IMG/VR virus record: IMGVR_UViG_3300023184_005116
Coordinates: 38,758-102,757 of that record
From: a virus
DNA: 64,000 nucleotides
Direction: 5' to 3' (one strand)
Shown: positions 58,211-64,000 of the stretch, piece by piece
How the letters are laid out: every line of letters begins with the position of its first letter
Numbering within the stretch: the stretch's first letter is position 1
Position numbers and translations under genes: made by a program
The notes under the pieces: generated by a model
Seen by the model: the letters and a program-made list of their open reading frames with translations, nothing else
Told to the model about the DNA's origin: nothing
The model's database searches: none

Positions 58211-58750
58211 ATGAAGTTTATGACATTTTTAGAGCTATTGCAAAATACAAATCCTCCACACTCTGTTATGTTTCGTTTAGAAGCATTAAAGGGGTTAAGA
58301 GAAAGACCTGATTTCCATCCAGAGGAAAGCGCTTTCGAGCATATTAAGATTGTGACTGAAAGACTTATGCAGACTAATGATCCTGATCTTATTTTAGCTG
58401 GATGTTTGCACGATCTATTTAAACACGATACAGTAAAGATTAATCCTAAGAACGGATTTCCAACCTGTCCTGGGCATGATACCGAAGTAGCAAAATTTAT
58501 TTGGTCTAATGAAGAAGTGCAAGAATGGATTAAAGGGTTAGGGGCGGACGTTGATACTGTTGCAAATCTTTGTAAAGATCATATGAGATTTCATCAGTTT
58601 GATCAGATGAGAAGGGTTAAACAACAAGAGTTTATGAGTAGACCTCATTGGGGTAAACTAGAATTTCTTGGAGCAGCAGATAATATGCTAGAAGAATTTG
58701 ATATTGATAATTTAGAAAAATCCTGGAAATGGAAAAGAAGTACGATTTAA
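58211..58750 (+). CDS. HD-domain phosphohydrolase
   Basis: FHPE...EH, LHDLFK, GHD, HMR, AD. Confidence 0.8.
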   Translation: MKFMTFLELLQNTNPPHSVMFRLEALKGLRERPDFHPEESAFEHIKIVTERLMQTNDPDLILAGCLHDLFKHDTVKINPKNGFPTCPGHDTEVAKFIWSNEEVQEWIKGLGADVDTVANLCKDHMRFHQFDQMRRVKQQEFMSRPHWGKLEFLGAADNMLEEFDIDNLEKSWKWKRSTI

Positions 58751-59814
58751 ACATACTTAAGGAATATATTGATGCCGGATTGGTCGAAAAAAACGACCAT
58801 CCAGTTTATCCTATTTCTATTTACAACTACAGTAGGGATTGTCAGTTTGAAAAAAAGTGGGATAATATTACCTTAAATATGAGAGGTACTATTCTCGATA
58901 CGCAAGGAAATCTGATAGCAAGAACATTTCCTAAATTCTTTAATATGGAAGAAATGGAAACAATTCCCAATGAAGAATTTGATGTGTTTGAAAAAATGGA
59001 CGGATCTTTGGGGATACTTTTCTATTATGAAAATGAATGGATATTATCTACAAAAGGTTCTTTTTCTTCCGATCAAGCAGTAAAAGGATTTGAAATGCTT
59101 AGTTCTTATGATTACCAAAAGTTACATAAGGATTATACCTACCTCTTTGAGATTATCTATAATGAAAACCGTATAGTTTGTCAATATGATTTTGAGGATC
59201 TTGTTTTACTTGGGATGATAGAAAACAAAACGGGGTATGAGGTAGATCTTTACGAAGATGGTAATGATATAAGATTAAAAAATCTAATAAACAATATTGG
59301 ATTTAAAATAGTCAAAAAATACTATGGAATAGAGGACTACAGGAAGCTAAAAACATTAATTGAAAATAATCATGAAGGATTTGTTCTTAGGTTTAAATCT
59401 AAATTAAGGATGAAAATAAAAGGTGAGGAGTATGTAAGATTGCACAGACTCCTTACAAATTTCTCCAATGTCGATATTTGGGAAAGCCTTATGCTGGGTA
59501 AAGATCTTAGTCTTATGCTAGAAAAAGTCCCTGATGAATTTGATAGCTGGGTTAGAAATGTCATCTATGATCTTAAAATAAAGTTTAAGGTTAGAGAAGA
59601 ACGTGCAAAAGAGATTATGTATAATCTGATAACTAACAAGGGTTTATCAAGAAAGGAGATAGCTGAAATACTTAATTTTGAAACATCCATGAATAGGACT
59701 ATAATATTCTGTATGTTGGACGGAAAAGATTACTCAAGCATTATCTGGAAAAACATTAGGCCAGTTTATCAAAAGCCTTTTTGGTATAAAGAAGATGAAA
59801 ATTATACAAATTAA
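58729..59814 (+). CDS. RNA ligase 1 (T4 Rnl1-like)
   Basis: FPKFFN, EKMDGSLG, TKGSF, LFEII, EGFV, KIKGEEY. Confidence 0.88.
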   Translation: MEKKYDLNILKEYIDAGLVEKNDHPVYPISIYNYSRDCQFEKKWDNITLNMRGTILDTQGNLIARTFPKFFNMEEMETIPNEEFDVFEKMDGSLGILFYYENEWILSTKGSFSSDQAVKGFEMLSSYDYQKLHKDYTYLFEIIYNENRIVCQYDFEDLVLLGMIENKTGYEVDLYEDGNDIRLKNLINNIGFKIVKKYYGIEDYRKLKTLIENNHEGFVLRFKSKLRMKIKGEEYVRLHRLLTNFSNVDIWESLMLGKDLSLMLEKVPDEFDSWVRNVIYDLKIKFKVREERAKEIMYNLITNKGLSRKEIAEILNFETSMNRTIIFCMLDGKDYSSIIWKNIRPVYQKPFWYKEDENYTN

Positions 59815-59872: not shown

Positions 59873-59997
59873 TAACGATACTCAGATATATTCAGTTGTT
59901 TATTAAATAATAAAAAATATGATTACAGAAGAAAAATACTTAAAAGCATTACAGGTTGTTAAAGACTATGAAAAACAATTGAATATATCTGTTGTTA
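59873..59997 (-). repeat. attC-like site, long class (125 bp)
   Basis: TAAC gatact CAGATATATTCAGTTGTTT ... AAACAATTGAATATATCTG tt GTTA. Confidence 0.8.
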
Positions 59998-60098
59998 GAT
60001 GTAGTTGCGAACCAGTAAAAACTAAAGATGAAAATGGTAATGGATTATTTGTGAGTCCTTGGTGTTGGAAGTGCAACACTTGGTGCAATTACATCTAA
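59919..60098 (+). CDS. Cassette protein, Cys-rich; not in ORF track
   Basis: Manual translation, 59 aa MITEEKYLKALQVVKDYEKQLNISVVRCSCEPVKTKDENGNGLFVSPWCWKCNTWCNYI; stop is the TAA of the next TAAC. Confidence 0.65.
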   Translation: MITEEKYLKALQVVKDYEKQLNISVVRCSCEPVKTKDENGNGLFVSPWCWKCNTWCNYI

Positions 60099-60217
60099 CG
60101 TATAGATGCAAAAGCAGTTTAATTTTAATTATATGACAAAGAAACAAAAAGTAGAAGAAGCTATCAAAGAAGCAGAAAAGGAATTAGAACGCCTTAAATT
60201 GCTTTTACATAGTGTTA
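60096..60217 (-). repeat. attC-like site, long class (122 bp)
   Basis: TAAC gtatag ATGCAAAAGCAGTTTAA ... TTAAATTGCTTTTACAT agt GTTA. Confidence 0.8.
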
Positions 60218-60306
60218 GTGGCAGTGCTTTAGAAGTATGCCCCTATTGTAAAACTAAAAATAGACATTGGTATGCAAAAGATTATTGGTGCTGTTCGTTT
60301 TGTTAG
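60133..60306 (+). CDS. Cassette protein with Zn-ribbon-like C-terminus
   Basis: MTKKQKVEE...HSVSGSALEVCPYC...CCSFC; starts inside the attC loop. Confidence 0.6.
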   Translation: MTKKQKVEEAIKEAEKELERLKLLLHSVSGSALEVCPYCKTKNRHWYAKDYWCCSFC

Positions 60307-60315
60307 CATTGCCAC

Positions 60316-60432
60316 TAACGGTTGGGTGTATATGTAGTGATTTACACTGAACTTTATTAGAAGAAATGAATATAATTATTAACAGACAAGGTTGATTAGA
60401 TGTAGTAAAATCATTACATATACACCCTGTTA
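60316..60432 (-). repeat. attC-like site (117 bp)
   Basis: TAAC ggtt GGGTGTATATGTAGTGATTT ... AAATCATTACATATACACCC t GTTA. Confidence 0.85.
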
Positions 60433-60464
60433 TAAGTAGTAAAACAAAAATAAACTAAACAGAT

Positions 60465-60758
60465 ATGGAAACCTTTAGAGAAAAACAAGAAAAATTTGAT
60501 AAATTAATTTCAGAACTTAATTCTGATTTTATTTGTGGTGCAGCAGTTGGAACAAAAGTAAAAGATAGTTCTTTGTATATAGCGGAAGAGTCAACAAAAA
60601 TTTATGGTACTGAAAAATACAAAATAGGAACATTTAACCAAAAAAGTGTAATTATTGACCCACATATTAAATGGGGAGATATGAGAATTTTTGATGAATC
60701 TGGAACGGAATTAATTAATTTATCAAATTTTGGATTTGATATAATGGATATGATTTAA
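60465..60758 (+). CDS. Cassette hypothetical protein
   Basis: 97 aa ORF filling one cassette. Confidence 0.6.
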   Translation: METFREKQEKFDKLISELNSDFICGAAVGTKVKDSSLYIAEESTKIYGTEKYKIGTFNQKSVIIDPHIKWGDMRIFDESGTELINLSNFGFDIMDMI

Positions 60759-60829
60759 TTTTTGTTTTATTTCATTTATACTTTGTTATGTTTAACGAAG
60801 TGTAGTTGTGAGGAACGAACAATTAAACA

Positions 60830-60877
60830 TAACGGATGAGTGTAAAAAATCGTTTTAATGTTTTTTACACTTTGTTA
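60830..60877 (-). repeat. attC-like site, short class (48 bp)
   Basis: TAAC ggatg AGTGTAAAAAA tcgttttaatg TTTTTTACACT tt GTTA. Confidence 0.85.
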
Positions 60878-60905
60878 TAAGTATGTAAAACAAAAATTAT
60901 ACAAT

Positions 60906-61067
60906 ATGAAAGTAAAAATAATAAAAGAACACAATGGAATACCAGAGGGTTCAGTGATACATGTGGAAAAAGAATTGAAAAACGATTACAAAGGAATTTG
61001 GTCAAGTATGATGGGTTCTTATACAGTTAAGGTAAAGAAGAAATATTGTGAAATTAAAAACTCATAA
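60906..61067 (+). CDS. Cassette hypothetical protein
   Basis: 53 aa from ATG 60906. Confidence 0.55.
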   Translation: MKVKIIKEHNGIPEGSVIHVEKELKNDYKGIWSSMMGSYTVKVKKKYCEIKNS

Positions 61068-61085
61068 TTTTTGTTTTATTACTTA

Positions 61086-61211
61086 TAACGTATGGCAGCT
61101 AAACGCTGTTGGAGATTTGAAACACTAAATTATAAACTTAAAATAAAATTAATATGAAAAACAAAACTTCAAACTTAGACAAAACCGCCAATAGCGATTT
61201 AGGTGTTGTTA
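61086..61211 (-). repeat. attC-like site, long class (126 bp)
   Basis: TAACG...CTAAACGCTGTTGG ... CCAATAGCGATTTAG...TGTTA. Confidence 0.75.
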
Positions 61212-61384
61212 GCGGTAGTTTAACTCATATTCCACTATTTCAGTATATTGCTGCGGTGGAAGCACATAAGAACACGTTAGATTTACTTGCAATAGTACAA
61301 AATGACAAAAAGGAATTGAAATTAGATTTAGAAGCAGCATATAAAGAAATTGACCGATTGAACGTCAAACTAAATTACCGCTAA
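61154..61384 (+). CDS. Cassette coiled-coil protein
   Basis: Starts inside the attC loop and reads GVVSGS across the core; stop is the TAA of TAAC. Confidence 0.6.
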   Translation: MKNKTSNLDKTANSDLGVVSGSLTHIPLFQYIAAVEAHKNTLDLLAIVQNDKKELKLDLEAAYKEIDRLNVKLNYR

Positions 61385-61429
61385 CGTCCCATGATAAACA
61401 ATCGTTTTAATGTTGTTTATCATTTGTTA
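61382..61429 (-). repeat. attC-like site, short class (48 bp)
   Basis: TAAC gtccc ATGATAAACAA tcgttttaatg TTGTTTATCAT tt GTTA. Confidence 0.85.
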
Positions 61430-61472
61430 GGTTTTGTCATTAATTTGTTTTACCTTTGTAAAAATTAAAAAT

Positions 61473-61691
61473 ATGGAAAATAAAAACACAAACGAAGAAC
61501 TTGAGTATTTTCAAAATAAACTCAAGGAAACTATGGGTAAAGGATTACCTAAAAAATATCTTGAAACAACTGACTTGGGTGAAGTCGATAAGGAATATAA
61601 ACATAGATTCAAAGAACGAATTGAAAAACACTTAACAGAAGTTGATAGAATTAAAAATATGATAGGCGATTCAAAACAAATTAATGATTGA
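61473..61691 (+). CDS. Cassette hypothetical protein
   Basis: 72 aa from ATG 61473; TACCTTTG at 61451 matches the Bacteroidota -7 element. Confidence 0.55.
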   Translation: MENKNTNEELEYFQNKLKETMGKGLPKKYLETTDLGEVDKEYKHRFKERIEKHLTEVDRIKNMIGDSKQIND

Positions 61692-61694
61692 ACC

Positions 61695-61781
61695 TAACGG
61701 TTGGGTATATACGAAGTACCCATATCACGAACTTTAAATTTAGTACAAACCTTAATGGGGTATTTCGTATATACCTTGTTA
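61695..61781 (-). repeat. attC-like site, medium class (87 bp)
   Basis: TAAC ggttg GGTATATACGAAGTACC ... GGTATTTCGTATATACC tt GTTA. Confidence 0.85.
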
Positions 61782-61796
61782 TAAACTGTAAAAATT

Positions 61797-61985
61797 ATGG
61801 ATTTAACACACGAACAAAAATTAGAAAAGAAACAAATAGTTAGAGATGAACTGAAAGGGAAGATAAAACATCTTTATATGTCATTTCTAAGTGAAATGGA
61901 AACACAATATCCACCTTGGTTAAATAAAGATGATGTTATTAATGTTTTGTCTTCCCTGATATTAGATGAGACGAAACTTAAATAA
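61797..61985 (+). CDS. Cassette hypothetical protein
   Basis: 62 aa ORF filling one cassette. Confidence 0.55.
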   Translation: MDLTHEQKLEKKQIVRDELKGKIKHLYMSFLSEMETQYPPWLNKDDVINVLSSLILDETKLK

Positions 61986-61998
61986 TTTTTATTGTTTA

Positions 61999-62046
61999 TA
62001 ACGATTGCAAATAAAACATCGTTTTAATGTGTTTTATTTGTTGTTA
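61999..62046 (-). repeat. attC-like site, short class (48 bp)
   Basis: TAAC gattg CAAATAAAACA tcgttttaatg TGTTTTATTTG tt GTTA. Confidence 0.85.
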
Positions 62047-62083
62047 TGTTTTAGTTTTAAAAATTTTATACAAATAAAAAAAT

Positions 62084-62329
62084 ATGAAATACGAAAGAGA
62101 ATACCAAGTGTTTGCAAAAGAAATAACCGATAAGTTTATATCAATGGTTACTGGTGAATTACCAACGCAATGTTTTTGTGGAGAAATGTCTGATGGGCCA
62201 AGTAGAATACCAACAGAAGAAGAGCAACGAGAATTTTTTAAAGAAAATAACAAATATGCGTTGGAGTGGTTGAACAAAAATATGGTGACTTATGACGAGT
62301 GGATTGCGAAGCATAAAACAAATTCATAA
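62084..62329 (+). CDS. Cassette hypothetical protein
   Basis: 81 aa ORF filling one cassette. Confidence 0.6.
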   Translation: MKYEREYQVFAKEITDKFISMVTGELPTQCFCGEMSDGPSRIPTEEEQREFFKENNKYALEWLNKNMVTYDEWIAKHKTNS

Positions 62330-62347
62330 AATTTTTAAAATTAAACA

Positions 62348-62434
62348 TAACGGTTGGGTATTGGCGAAGTGCCACCAGTACAAACTTAAATTCAAGGCAC
62401 AAACTATCTGTGGCATTTTGCCAATACTGTGTTA
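62348..62434 (-). repeat. attC-like site, medium class (87 bp)
   Basis: TAAC ggttgg GTATTGGCGAAGTGCCAC ... GTGGCATTTTGCCAATAC tgt GTTA. Confidence 0.85.
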
Positions 62435-62480
62435 TAGGTAGTTGTTTTAAAAATTAGCGTTGGCATTAAATGGTTTAAAT

Positions 62481-62762
62481 ATGAAAATTCCAAATACAAC
62501 AGACGAAAAACCTTATATTGAATTTAGAATTGATAAAAAAGGTAAAATTAAATTATCAGCTACATCAAATTGGTGGGGAGGAAAAAATGCTGGTTTCTCA
62601 TCTTCTGATGGAACGGAAGGTAATACTTGCGAACCAAAGCATTTAAAAGCATACATTAAAGCATTTAAAGAGAAAAAGATTAAGAATATTGAGAAAGAAA
62701 TTTTAGCATTACAAAAGCAATTAGAAGTTGTTGAATCTGAAACCGAGCGTTGGGATTTTTAA
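62481..62762 (+). CDS. Cassette hypothetical protein
   Basis: 93 aa from ATG 62481 (alternative GTG 62460). Confidence 0.6.
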   Translation: MKIPNTTDEKPYIEFRIDKKGKIKLSATSNWWGGKNAGFSSSDGTEGNTCEPKHLKAYIKAFKEKKIKNIEKEILALQKQLEVVESETERWDF

Positions 62763-62774
62763 AACAATTACCTA

Positions 62775-62900
62775 TAACGTTTTGCGGCTAACAGAAGTTG
62801 GCGATTACGAAGCACAAATTTTCAATTATAAAAAAAATTAAATACAAAGCAATGAACTACAATAAACCACAAAGCCGCCAATTTTTGTTAGGTGCTGTTA
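62775..62900 (-). repeat. attC-like site, long class (126 bp)
   Basis: TAACG...CTAACAGAAGTTGGCG ... CGCCAATTTTTGTTAG...TGTTA. Confidence 0.8.
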
Positions 62901-63091
62901 TAGGTAGTATTTTGAGGTTGGGTTTCAAGATTATTAATTGCAATCACTTTAAAATGAAAGCACATAACGGTAAACCTTATTATAAAAGTATTGTAAAAAT
63001 TAAGGGATTTAGAACTGCTGTCGTTGACAGATATGATGGAAATAGAAGTACAAATAGGTTTTATTGGCGTGTCGGCAAATATTACCTATAA
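62852..63091 (+). CDS. Cassette basic protein
   Basis: MNYNKPQSRQFLLGAVIGS...; starts inside the attC loop; stop is the TAA of TAAC. Confidence 0.6.
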   Translation: MNYNKPQSRQFLLGAVIGSILRLGFKIINCNHFKMKAHNGKPYYKSIVKIKGFRTAVVDRYDGNRSTNRFYWRVGKYYL

Positions 63092-63136
63092 CGGTTGATG
63101 ATAAACAATCGTTTTAATGTTGTTTATCATTTGTTA
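63089..63136 (-). repeat. attC-like site, short class (48 bp)
   Basis: TAAC ggttg ATGATAAACAA tcgttttaatg TTGTTTATCAT tt GTTA. Confidence 0.85.
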
Positions 63137-63179
63137 TAAGTATGTATTATTTTTGTTTTACCTATTAAAAAATTAAATT

Positions 63180-63395
63180 ATGACACAAGAAAAACTAATT
63201 GAAATTTGGGACACTATACCAAATAAACATAAAAATTATAGTGGGGTTGAGGTAGTTGGTGAAATTGAAATTATGGGATATTTCACGAGAAAAGAATTAG
63301 ATGTTGCTGAGAAAAAAGGTTGGTTGTATAATAATCATGCTGAGTATGATATGGGAGAACCATCTTATAATTTAATAAACTCAAAACAAAAATAA
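63180..63395 (+). CDS. Cassette hypothetical protein
   Basis: 71 aa ORF filling one cassette. Confidence 0.6.
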   Translation: MTQEKLIEIWDTIPNKHKNYSGVEVVGEIEIMGYFTRKELDVAEKKGWLYNNHAEYDMGEPSYNLINSKQK

Positions 63396-63404
63396 TATTA
63401 CTTA

Positions 63405-63491
63405 TAACGGCTGGGTATATGTGAAGTACCTTACCACAGAACTTAATAATTTAGTAGAAACATTATAAGGTATTTCACATATACCTTGTTA
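63405..63491 (-). repeat. attC-like site, medium class (87 bp)
   Basis: TAAC ggctg GGTATATGTGAAGTACCTTA ... TAAGGTATTTCACATATACC tt GTTA. Confidence 0.85.
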
Positions 63492-63507: not shown

Positions 63508-63723
63508 ATGGAAAATAATATTGAAAAATGGATGAAAGAGTGGGTTGATAGAACATCAAAAGTTAAATATGAAAACTCTTTCAATGAGAAGAGTGATGAA
63601 TGGATTGAGATTGAAGGTATTGGTAGATTTAAAGGACTTGAGATTGTCTCAGAAGAACATCAAGATATAAATGAGATAACAATCAATCTCAAATATGATG
63701 TGTGGGATAAAAATGTTTTATAA
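63508..63723 (+). CDS. Cassette hypothetical protein (integrase-proximal cassette)
   Basis: 71 aa; stop is the TAA of the terminal TAAC. Confidence 0.6.
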   Translation: MENNIEKWMKEWVDRTSKVKYENSFNEKSDEWIEIEGIGRFKGLEIVSEEHQDINEITINLKYDVWDKNVL

Positions 63724-63745
63724 CTATATTATATATGCAACTCTA
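63718..63745 (-). other. Candidate attI-like site
   Basis: The last TAAC is followed by T rather than G and by no hairpin; minus strand reads GAGTTGCATATATAATATAG|TTATAA; lies between array and integrase. Confidence 0.55.
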
Positions 63746-63776
63746 GTTAATTGATTCATTATTAATACTTTAGAAC

Positions 63777-64000
63777 ATGAAAAAGACCGACTATTACAAG
63801 ATTTGCGAACAAAAATTGAAGTACTTGAATTATTCGGACAGAACGGTTGAGTGTTATCTTTCCTATATAAATCAGTTTTTGGATAGAATAGAAATTCCAC
63901 CTACTCGGCTAGGTTCACAAGACTTTCAATCCTATTTGGACAACTATAAATTCACTTCGGTTTCTCAACAGAATCAAGTAATATATGCAATCAGATTTCT
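63777..64000 (+). CDS. intI: Integron-integrase-like tyrosine recombinase, N-terminal SAM-like domain (truncated by window end; not in ORF track)
   Basis: Manual translation MKKTDYYKICEQKLKYLNYSDRTVECYLSYINQFLDRIEIPPTRLGSQDFQSYLDNYKFTSVSQQNQVIYAIRF matches the IntI/Xer N-terminal pattern YSxRTxxxY..P..L....S.SxxNQ...A..F; catalytic domain not visible. Confidence 0.75.
   Translation, partial: MKKTDYYKICEQKLKYLNYSDRTVECYLSYINQFLDRIEIPPTRLGSQDFQSYLDNYKFTSVSQQNQVIYAIRF

Follow-up and report, generated by a model that had tools for sequence, protein, structure and literature searches.

An integron cassette usually consists of an ORF that lacks a promoter and is followed by a non-coding attC site. 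The locus studied here raises the question of whether a recombination site can instead lie in front of a gene and encode part of it: within the window (the whole 64,000-nt stretch of viral DNA that was analysed), the first-pass annotation had described hairpin sites in whose loops genes begin, and had proposed that exchange at the core GTT of these sites would shuffle protein modules. Judged from its sequence, the window appears to come from a freshwater jumbo phage and to end, on the right, in an integron-like array of cassettes, with a recombinase and an attI-like site at its terminus:

63721 to 63776, + strand: last left core TAAC (63721-63724) and attI-like block, the block being conserved beside the recombinase gene
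63777 to 63998, + strand: tyrosine recombinase, N-terminal 74 aa, truncated by the contig end (PF13495 match)

A conserved insertion site beside the integrase gene, as expected of attI, was found: among ~20 loci compared, the sequence around the last TAAC was variable on the left side and conserved on the right, and one lake contig (X4 record 31) broke at 63721. The same cassette adjoined the attI-like block in one phage and was internal in another (attI-proximal in L107 and internal in L129, 95%; attI-proximal in L095 and internal in L106, 97.5%). Across ~35 related loci, the array always lay directly upstream of a tyrosine recombinase gene, the recombinase domains being PF13495 and PF00589. 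A full-length relative of the window recombinase (L111:1005-1805) is a 267-aa, Xer-like protein in which the additional domain specific to IntI was absent; its alignment to VchIntIA (2a3v) split into two stretches, the gap between which was 33 residues in the phage protein cf. 81 in IntI. TIGR02249 scored 159 bits on the phage recombinase, below its cut-off of 265, and the best models were XerA-like. An assignment as canonical IntI was rejected for this short, Xer-like enzyme without the IntI insertion, and a search of cultured phages for the recombinase gave no match above 38% identity.

The array itself contains 12 sites, whose limits were counted by the detector from the left core TAAC to the right core GTTA, both included:

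59873 to 59997, + strand: site A, 125 nt (stem score 20; spacers of 6 nt left and 2 nt right)
60096 to 60217, + strand: site B, 122 nt (detector; repeat I14, 17-nt arms, 88%)
60316 to 60432, + strand: site C, 117 nt, own-start ORF downstream
60830 to 60877, + strand: site D, 48 nt, own-start ORF downstream
61086 to 61211, + strand: site E, 126 nt (detector; DNA folding)
61382 to 61429, + strand: site F, 48 nt, own-start ORF downstream
61695 to 61781, + strand: site G, 87 nt, own-start ORF downstream
61999 to 62046, + strand: site H, 48 nt, own-start ORF downstream
62348 to 62434, + strand: site I, 87 nt, own-start ORF downstream
62775 to 62900, + strand: site J, 126 nt (detector; z -2.8, MFE fold is the site hairpin)
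63089 to 63136, + strand: site K, 48 nt, own-start ORF downstream
63405 to 63491, + strand: site L, 87 nt, own-start ORF downstream

Like attC sites, these 12 and the 245 sites of related arrays are imperfect hairpins with RYYYAAC / GTTRRRY cores. Site A, for instance, corresponds to repeat I5 with 19-nt arms that are 95% complementary, and its MFE fold is the site hairpin. The arms covary between site families, and the ends of cassette bodies are mutually complementary with compensatory changes (e.g. repeats I23 and I2). The sites of related arrays share one polarity, as the spacer on the TAAC arm was 3–4 nt longer in 217 of 245; this 3–4 nt bulge on the + strand TAAC arm is their sole consistent asymmetry. 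Single-sequence DNA folding of the four long sites gave modest z-scores of -0.7 to -2.8, non-significant in three of the four, and in three of the four the MFE fold was the site hairpin; the reality of the sites is supported by the 245 similarly built sites of related arrays rather than by folding energy. From this hairpin architecture, folded single-stranded sites are the predicted substrate of the recombinase, which would act on the + strand at TAAC.

Four long sites (A, B, E and J) each contain a loop ATG, at 59919, 60133, 61154 and 62852, that opens an ORF running through the right arm, as the first-pass annotation had reported:

59919 to 60098, + strand: ORF A, 59 aa, N-module of 25 aa (loop and right arm) followed by a Cys-rich C-part
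60133 to 60306, + strand: ORF B, 57 aa, helical N-module followed by a Cys-rich C-part
61154 to 61384, + strand: ORF E, 76 aa, C-part beginning in the right half of the R-box and ending at the following left core
62852 to 63091, + strand: ORF J, 79 aa, conserved from ~residue 24, N-terminal part variable (alignment A4)

Given these limits of its C-part, ORF E has both its ends in R-box sequence. ORF B has a further in-frame ATG at 60106. The 48, 87 and 117 nt sites precede genes with their own starts (ATGs at 60465, 60906, 61473, 61797, 62084, 62481, 63180 and 63508), again in agreement with the annotation. A recombination site thus lies inside an ORF at the long sites, and the pattern is not confined to the window: loop-started ORFs were found at 48 of the 83 long sites in ~35 related jumbo-phage arrays, many of them without an alternative start. 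Full-length homologues of ORF A were present at 65–93% identity, and 13 of the 14 database homologues of ORF B start at the loop ATG. These results support the proposal that long sites combine a recombination hairpin with a translation start and an N-module, the use of the loop ATGs as starts being probable from such comparisons.

In all four ORFs the core GTT is an in-frame Val (59994, 60214, 61208 and 62897; offsets of 75, 81, 54 and 45), and the core-spanning peptides S-V-V-R-C-S, H-S-V-S-G-S, G-V-V-S-G-S and G-A-V-I-G-S were correctly read. The annotation had put the chance of a shared frame at about 1 in 27, a calculation that is not valid since the frame is forced by stop codons elsewhere: over a span that starts 30 nt ahead of the core and ends 21 nt past it, only the GTT frame was free of stops in a scan of the four long sites plus the 117 and 87 nt sites without a loop ORF. 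Any ORF that crosses the core at these sites is in the GTT frame because the other two frames hold stops, and the common frame arises because the site consensus carries stops in those frames. Nor would exchange at GTT always be in frame, as had been claimed, since the frame is not fixed: among 48 loop ORFs in related arrays, the GTT frame was used by 38, the xxG-TTA frame by 10 and the third frame by none, so that more than a single frame occurs at the supposed crossover.

The boundaries of the units that move were also mapped. Units were assigned from high-identity alignments, as the length classes of neighbouring sites proved ambiguous, and the lake-contig evidence refers to those stretches of the array that contigs cover. 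One such unit in the window is the following:

59877 to 60099, + strand: cassette A, the mobile unit comprising site A and ORF A, bounded by successive left cores

Cassette A recurs in L132, L133/L134, L135 and L136-L139, i.e. in four array contexts with different neighbours on both sides, and a lake contig (X2 record 9) matches 59882-60099 with unlike sequence beyond both ends; another (X2 record 10) matches 61083-61386, a stretch that includes ORF E. Cassettes shared between related phages (L004/L087, 83% over 372 nt; L092/L097) are likewise bounded at the left core. HSPs extended from a cassette body into the preceding site in 43 cases vs. 3 into the following site. Lake-metagenome contigs end at left cores and include the left-core to left-core joints 61694 to 63089 and 63410 to 62005. 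All mappable recent cassette transfers break at the left core, with site and ORF together, and this does not bear out GTT as the cassette crossover. By sequence comparison, then, the mobile unit is a site plus its downstream ORF, cut at the left core TAAC, and it follows that a loop-started gene normally travels whole. The boundaries of the main pathway are upstream of the ATG and not inside the ORF, although some right-core junctions exist.

Those junctions emerged from separate searches with N-terminal and C-terminal halves, in which the predicted pattern of one module joined to different partners was found, with junctions at the V-x-x-S core; homologues with swapped N-modules were P0008-P0014 and P0016-P0049. 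The C-part of ORF E stands behind 12 unrelated N-module clusters. Within this family, N and C identity were uncorrelated (r 0.12), and N identity was <35% in 155 of the 196 pairs with C identity ≥80%. The C-part of ORF A, at ~90–100% identity, stands behind five N-modules (four besides its own), and identical N-modules were found on unrelated C-parts. Fixed pairing of N and C, which would have spoken against shuffling, was confined to the ORF B family, where both halves co-diverge (mean identity 71% and 74%) and all 14 homologues keep the same pairing; it does not hold for ORFs A and E. At the DNA level, homology begins exactly at the right core between site E of the window and L141, and also between L105 and L113, and a joint between two right cores (60878 to 62050) is present in one lake contig. 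Other exchanges of cargo have their junctions near the ATG and stop inside a conserved leader and trailer, or inside an ORF, pointing to homology-driven or illegitimate exchange. In further searches, the scan with alignment A1 found no loci in viral contigs and, in a single metagenome scan, eight, all with the N-module of the window; the scan of viral contigs with alignment A2 found L140/L141 only; and tblastn of 13 window cassette proteins against 131 loci gave only one N-module match. Taken together, the sequences indicate that sites and bodies are re-paired at the right core on a slower timescale than cassette transfer. Combinatorial shuffling at GTT is thus upheld in part, by the N-by-C pattern and the right-core junctions, while GTT as the main exchange point is not.

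In the explanation that we propose, the mobile cassette is a hairpin site followed by an ORF and bounded by two left cores TAAC; because the cassette has this order, a site, read along the genes, lies upstream of its own gene or overlaps that gene's 5' end. Sites of the long classes (~115–150 nt) would supply the start codon and 13–45 codons from the loop, and their right arm and extended R-box would be translated. With the main crossover at the left core, the in-frame GTT would not be a junction in ordinary transfer. N-modules would be site-family sequences, with amino acids weakly constrained and arms constrained at the DNA level, and the same N-module would occur on unrelated cargo because it belongs to the site family. 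A slower step would bring a site's central part together with a different downstream body, the junction lying at the right core; the N-by-C swaps, the right-core homology starts and the right-core joint, which weigh against the explanation, indicate that the right core is also an exchange point and the site-plus-ORF unit divisible. We consider this explanation as a whole (site-plus-gene cassette, main left-core crossover and slower right-core re-pairing) probable. By analogy with canonical attC sites (PMC5027507), the arm with the unpaired bases would mark the + strand as the one that is not recombined, which counts against the left-core explanation.

It is possible, but in our judgement unlikely, that the enzyme itself also recombines the complementary-strand hairpin at the right-core GTT, as a minor reaction relative to that at the left core, carrying bodies to positions behind other sites and thereby fusing N-modules mostly in frame to new C-modules. 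The precise core junctions of the N-by-C combinations, DNA homology starting within ~5 nt of GTT and the right-core to right-core joint in one lake contig are all consistent with such cutting, as is the incomplete, site-dependent strand selectivity of canonical integrases (PMC5027507); the GTT frame is used by 79% of loop ORFs, so that the majority of exchanges would preserve it. However, 21% are in the other frame, the in-frame junctions are over-counted because database proteins are ascertained for open frames, the mapped recent transfers all keep site and ORF and break at left cores, some cargo was exchanged at points other than the core (leader/trailer or inside an ORF), and the B family never swaps.

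Returning to the site-plus-gene cassette, its translation from the loop could be doubted if the ATGs were unused, the true start being downstream or the bodies non-coding, and the N-modules were AT-rich hairpin sequence that happens to be open. Most substitutions in loop codons change the amino acid, and third positions are only mildly over-represented (205/163/108 at positions 3/1/2), a weak, non-independent signal of protein-level selection that was not used as proof of coding; some members of the E family (P0042 and P0046) start just before the conserved core and have no N-module; and 48-nt sites yield spurious extensions of 5–11 codons. Against these observations, ORFs A and E lack an in-frame ATG downstream of the core, and ATG and frame are retained, despite indels, across the 14 B homologues and several N-module families. 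In addition, a lipoprotein signal peptide begins within the loop at L111:371-664 and requires the loop start, and a 96-aa loop-started ORF is retained between L004 and L087 over 83% DNA identity. We therefore regard unused loop ATGs as very improbable. Least probable of all is that the hairpins are regulatory or terminator-like repeats whose mosaicism comes from homologous recombination between repeats only, as the weak single-site folding z-scores, the ORF replacement inside a conserved leader and trailer, and a modest enrichment of the Bacteroidota-type -7 motif TAnnTTTG (25 of 178 cassettes, 14% of leaders, mainly in the 48-nt class and uninformative on long sites) might suggest, but the tyrosine recombinase that always abuts the arrays (~35 loci), breakpoints on the 4-nt core, including at the conserved attI-like block, the polarity shared by 217 of 245 sites and the complementary body ends with compensatory changes all argue otherwise.

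In the site-plus-gene cassettes, changes in the pairing of site and cargo can be traced nucleotide by nucleotide in a natural setting, which bears on how cargo becomes linked to attC sites; in lake viromes, one C-terminal body is joined to a dozen site-encoded N-termini. The short Xer-like enzyme is a candidate for structure-specific recombination. If right-core exchange is enzyme-catalysed, the array would be a natural device for shuffling protein modules, by which jumbo phages diversify small proteins, and a natural counterpart of engineered module shuffling through attC sites in ORFs. If it is not enzymatic, the locus remains a natural example of hairpin recombination sites that contain coding sequence.

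Among known systems, the promoter-stem-loop (PeSL) cassettes of T4-type phages are small ORFs behind a stem-loop and expression signals that are shuffled between genomes, a process that is attributed to homology-driven exchange and is not known to involve a dedicated recombinase or an attI. They resemble the phage array in having a stem-loop before a small mobile ORF and differ in that the array has a recombinase and attI. Overall, the system is integron-like and departs from canonical integrons in several features. As in chromosomal integrons (IntI, attI, attC; Vibrio VCR arrays), small, mostly single-ORF cassettes are arrayed and parted by imperfect hairpins with YYTAAC / GTTRRR cores, conserved site families accompany unrelated cargo, cassette ends are complementary, and one end of the array has a tyrosine recombinase and a conserved insertion site. 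Unlike in those integrons, the recombinase is a 267-aa, Xer-like protein without the IntI-specific insertion, the ORFs point toward the recombinase and attI with the site before the gene rather than the ORF before attC, R-boxes extend to 11–70 nt, cassette proteins have their start and N-terminus encoded within the long sites, and the carrier is a virulent-type jumbo phage. In canonical attC sites, the extrahelical bases and the AAC that is cleaved on the recombined strand are on opposite arms (PMC5027507), whereas the phage bulge of 3–4 nt is beside the core on the arm with the cut AAC, as the unit boundaries map to the bulged arm's own TAAC.

CALINs and integrons have been described in phage genomes, including those of virulent phages of Bacteroidota (PMC9892861), and share with the present array attC-like sites in a phage genome; the text of that report, searched for the term, does not mention jumbo phages. 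Fused cassettes of class 1 integrons have context-dependent N-termini, as rare accidents of attC loss (PMC4670013). There, as here, the protein N-terminus comes from outside the original ORF, across a remnant of a recombination site, but the phage site is intact and regularly supplies the start codon. Finally, synthetic attC sites have been placed in coding sequences, and module shuffling through such sites was proposed (Nivina et al. 2020, PMC7439510). Both systems have a structure-specific hairpin recombination site that also encodes peptide; theirs is engineered, uses IntI1 and crosses over inside the fusion protein, whereas the phage array is natural and has its main crossover outside the ORF.

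The source contig is an IMG/VR viral contig of 102,757 bp with a CheckV completeness of 34%, and the window is its final 64 kb, where dense, phage-like genes (ribonucleotide reductase, topoisomerase subunits, RNA ligase) lie almost all on the + strand. Twelve hairpin sites (A to L) span window positions 59873-63491 with small ORFs in between; in all twelve the left core ends in TAAC and the right core begins with GTTA. ORFs behind the eight shorter sites have their own starts. 3' of the last small ORF, TAAC is joined to a unique block and then to the N-terminus of a tyrosine recombinase truncated by the contig end. The main features are as follows (window numbering, strand as presented).

59873-59997, long site A, with ORF A (59919-60098) starting in its loop
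60096-60217, long site B, with ORF B (60133-60306) starting in its loop
61086-61211, long site E, with ORF E (61154-61384) starting in its loop
62775-62900, long site J, with ORF J (62852-63091) starting in its loop
63508-63723, last small ORF of the array, with no hairpin after it

Folding energies of individual window sites were unremarkable because of their large loops, and the case for the sites being real rests on comparison across loci. Fifty viral contigs, many of them 100-360 kb long, carried relatives of the recombinase N-terminus. Using a detector with simple criteria (core pair plus stem), we found 245 sites across about 35 loci, in arrays of 3-15 that lie directly upstream of the recombinase gene and on its strand. 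Site lengths clustered near 48, 79, 88, 115 and 125 nt, and the spacer after the left TAAC exceeded that before the right GTTA by 3-4 nt in 217 of 245 sites. The full-length recombinase of one related locus (L111:1005-1805; 267 residues, PF13495 and PF00589) scored best with XerA-type models and fell under the cut-off of the integron-integrase model; its alignment with VchIntIA was in two pieces, skipping the IntI-specific region. Among cultured phages, no relative exceeded 38% identity, the nearest being integrases of Cellulophaga and Polaribacter phages. Contigs of three lake runs omitted 72 nt from the loop of the 117-nt site C (window 60339-60412); thus, identical arms occur with a short loop, and loop content alone may distinguish the site size classes. 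The RNA ligase gene lies after the recombinase in L111 (1005-3054) but before the array in the window (58729-59814), so array position relative to core genes varies among relatives. The exact ORF E protein (P0015) is recorded on a 320,792-bp contig, so public data include a far more complete version of this phage, which probably carries the whole recombinase.

Complementarity between body ends fits either polarity, and we therefore sought identical cassettes in different arrays. In two locus pairs (L004/L087, 83% over 372 nt, and L092/L097), homology began at the preceding site's left core, covered that site and the ORF, ended at the next left core and collapsed outside this unit. In two others (L107/L129, 95%; L095/L106, 97.5%), one phage carried the shared site-plus-ORF unit beside the recombinase-proximal block and its partner carried it within the array, with divergence directly after TAAC. 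HSPs including body sequence reached into the preceding site in 43 cases versus 3 into the following site. The ORF A cassette occurred in four further array settings, where the breaks lay at left cores and the neighbours differed on either side. Past this cassette in L133:1834-2120 and L134:2747-2918, the left core was followed by GC-richer, unlike sequence with no hairpin, which could mark a further insertion site or result from chimeric assembly. In other lake metagenomes, contigs spanned 59882-60099, 61083-61386 and 62347-62785, each left core to left core, as were the joints 61694>63089 and 63410>62005. In about 20 loci, the last TAAC separated a variable left side from a block on its right that was conserved up to the recombinase ATG. 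Together, the shared cassettes, lake-contig boundaries and conserved block show that the mobile unit consists of a site and its downstream ORF and that it enters at an attI-like site next to the recombinase. The left core was a breakpoint in every recent comparison, and a loop-started gene does not cross the main crossover.

The first-pass annotation had proposed that the long sites serve both as recombination hairpins and as translation start plus N-terminal module, and that exchange at an in-frame core GTT yields chimeric proteins. Its description of the four long sites, their loop ATGs, GTT offsets (75, 81, 54 and 45 nt) and core-spanning peptides was accurate, and the dual role was supported by related arrays, where 48 of 83 sites of the long classes contained an ATG with an ORF continuing into the body. 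Of the 47 ORFs that belong to the 88-nt class, 43 started after the core. ORFs A and E contain no later in-frame ATG, and the loop ATG was the start in 13 of 14 database homologues of ORF B, whose N and C parts co-diverge. Loop-started genes are thus general and probably real. Amino-acid constraint at loop codons was weak, and in the arms and R-box it is DNA pairing that fixes the encoded residues. The argument that a shared frame would arise by chance in about 1 in 27 cases fails: between 30 nt upstream and 21 nt downstream of the core, only the GTT-codon frame was stop-free in all four long sites, and likewise around the core of the 117- and 87-nt window sites without a loop ORF, so any core-crossing ORF must use it. 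The fixed frame, which is explained by the site consensus, held for the window's four sites but not throughout related arrays (38 with a GTT codon, 10 with xxG TTA and 0 in the remaining frame). In L111:371-664, which uses the other frame (xxG TTA), the first 17 residues of a lipoprotein signal peptide come from the loop and right arm. A -7 promoter motif of Bacteroidota type (TAnnTTTG; expectation about 0.05 per 63-nt window in coding bodies) preceded the start by ~25 nt in 25 of 178 cassettes, most of which follow 48-nt sites (for example, the leader at window 61440-61472, with further leaders in related loci), a hint that cassettes carry their own promoters and that the host belongs to the Bacteroidota.

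The predicted pattern of varied pairings between N-modules (loop and right arm) and C-parts (after the right core) was present. Among ORF A homologues, five different N-modules preceded the Cys-rich C-part, itself conserved at about 90-100% identity, and in L111 the window's ORF A N-module is joined to a different C-part. Thirty proteins of the ORF E family had a common C-part but N-modules from 12 clusters; N and C identities were uncorrelated (r 0.12), with N identity <35% in 155 of 196 pairs with C identity >=80%. One 40-residue N-module occurred on both A-type and E-type C-parts (P0010, P0049), and a second was shared by L118 and P0024 with unrelated bodies. Among 104 loop-started ORFs, 8 N clusters joined >1 C cluster and 3 C clusters joined >1 N cluster. 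"Same N, different C" is expected in any integron from site-family conservation; "same C, different N" requires site/body re-pairing at the right core. In DNA comparisons, the sequence shared by window cassette E and L141 started no more than a few nt from the right core, L105 and L113 had a common body start behind unrelated sites, and one lake contig held a right-core-to-right-core joint (60878>62050). An ORF J homologue (P0065, alignment A4) continues, uninterrupted by a stop, into a segment resembling a right arm and another Cys-rich body, and looks like two fused cassettes.

Junctions also lay away from the core, near ATG and stop, where ORFs were replaced between a conserved leader and trailer. 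L094:8193-9148 and L095:2168-3123, from closely related phages (recombinases 98.9% identical), share an ORF at about 98% identity and differ in site, leader and first 8-11 codons; this 5' block swap had its left junction at the left core and its right junction within the ORF, and the chimeric 5' end therefore arose away from GTT. Imperfect terminal inverted repeats of about 70 nt, amounting to a very long R-box, flank cassettes L105:2880-3560, L113:8523-9065 and L101:8531-9278, where they are conserved around unrelated ORFs and paired with different site centres. Five window cassettes kept site, leader and trailer in other lake metagenomes with the start-to-stop-codon stretch replaced, so one framework holds different cargo.

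60894-61070, replaced stretch of cassette D
61461-61671, replaced stretch of cassette F
61799-61981, replaced stretch of cassette G
62081-62326, replaced stretch of cassette H
63154-63388, replaced stretch of cassette K

Exchange at GTT left clear traces at the right core but was not the main pathway, as breaks in recent comparisons fall at left cores. The site-body link outlasts recent transfers but decays over longer divergence. Left-core breaks, this decaying link and the junctions elsewhere lead us to read the array as a mosaic, in which one dominant site-specific reaction would be accompanied by slower processes. The right-core step may reflect homology-driven or template-switch exchange within the conserved core and R-box. 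Alternatively, the same enzyme could recombine the complementary-strand hairpin, as strand selectivity of canonical integrases is incomplete (PMC5027507); we consider it rather unlikely that the right-core step is enzyme-catalysed.

Reported phage integrons and CALINs are host-derived integrons or attC clusters, down to two sites per cluster (PMC9892861). Artificial attC sites within coding sequence have been built, along with a proposal that modules could be shuffled by way of them (PMC7439510), and cassette fusions that have a foreign N-terminus are on record as rare accidents (PMC4670013). We found no description in the literature of natural hairpin sites routinely supplying start codons and N-termini. 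The phage system works like an integron but departs from it in three defining features, namely the IntI insertion, the placement of unpaired bases and gene orientation: read from attI, cassette order is canonical, but the phage genes are antisense.
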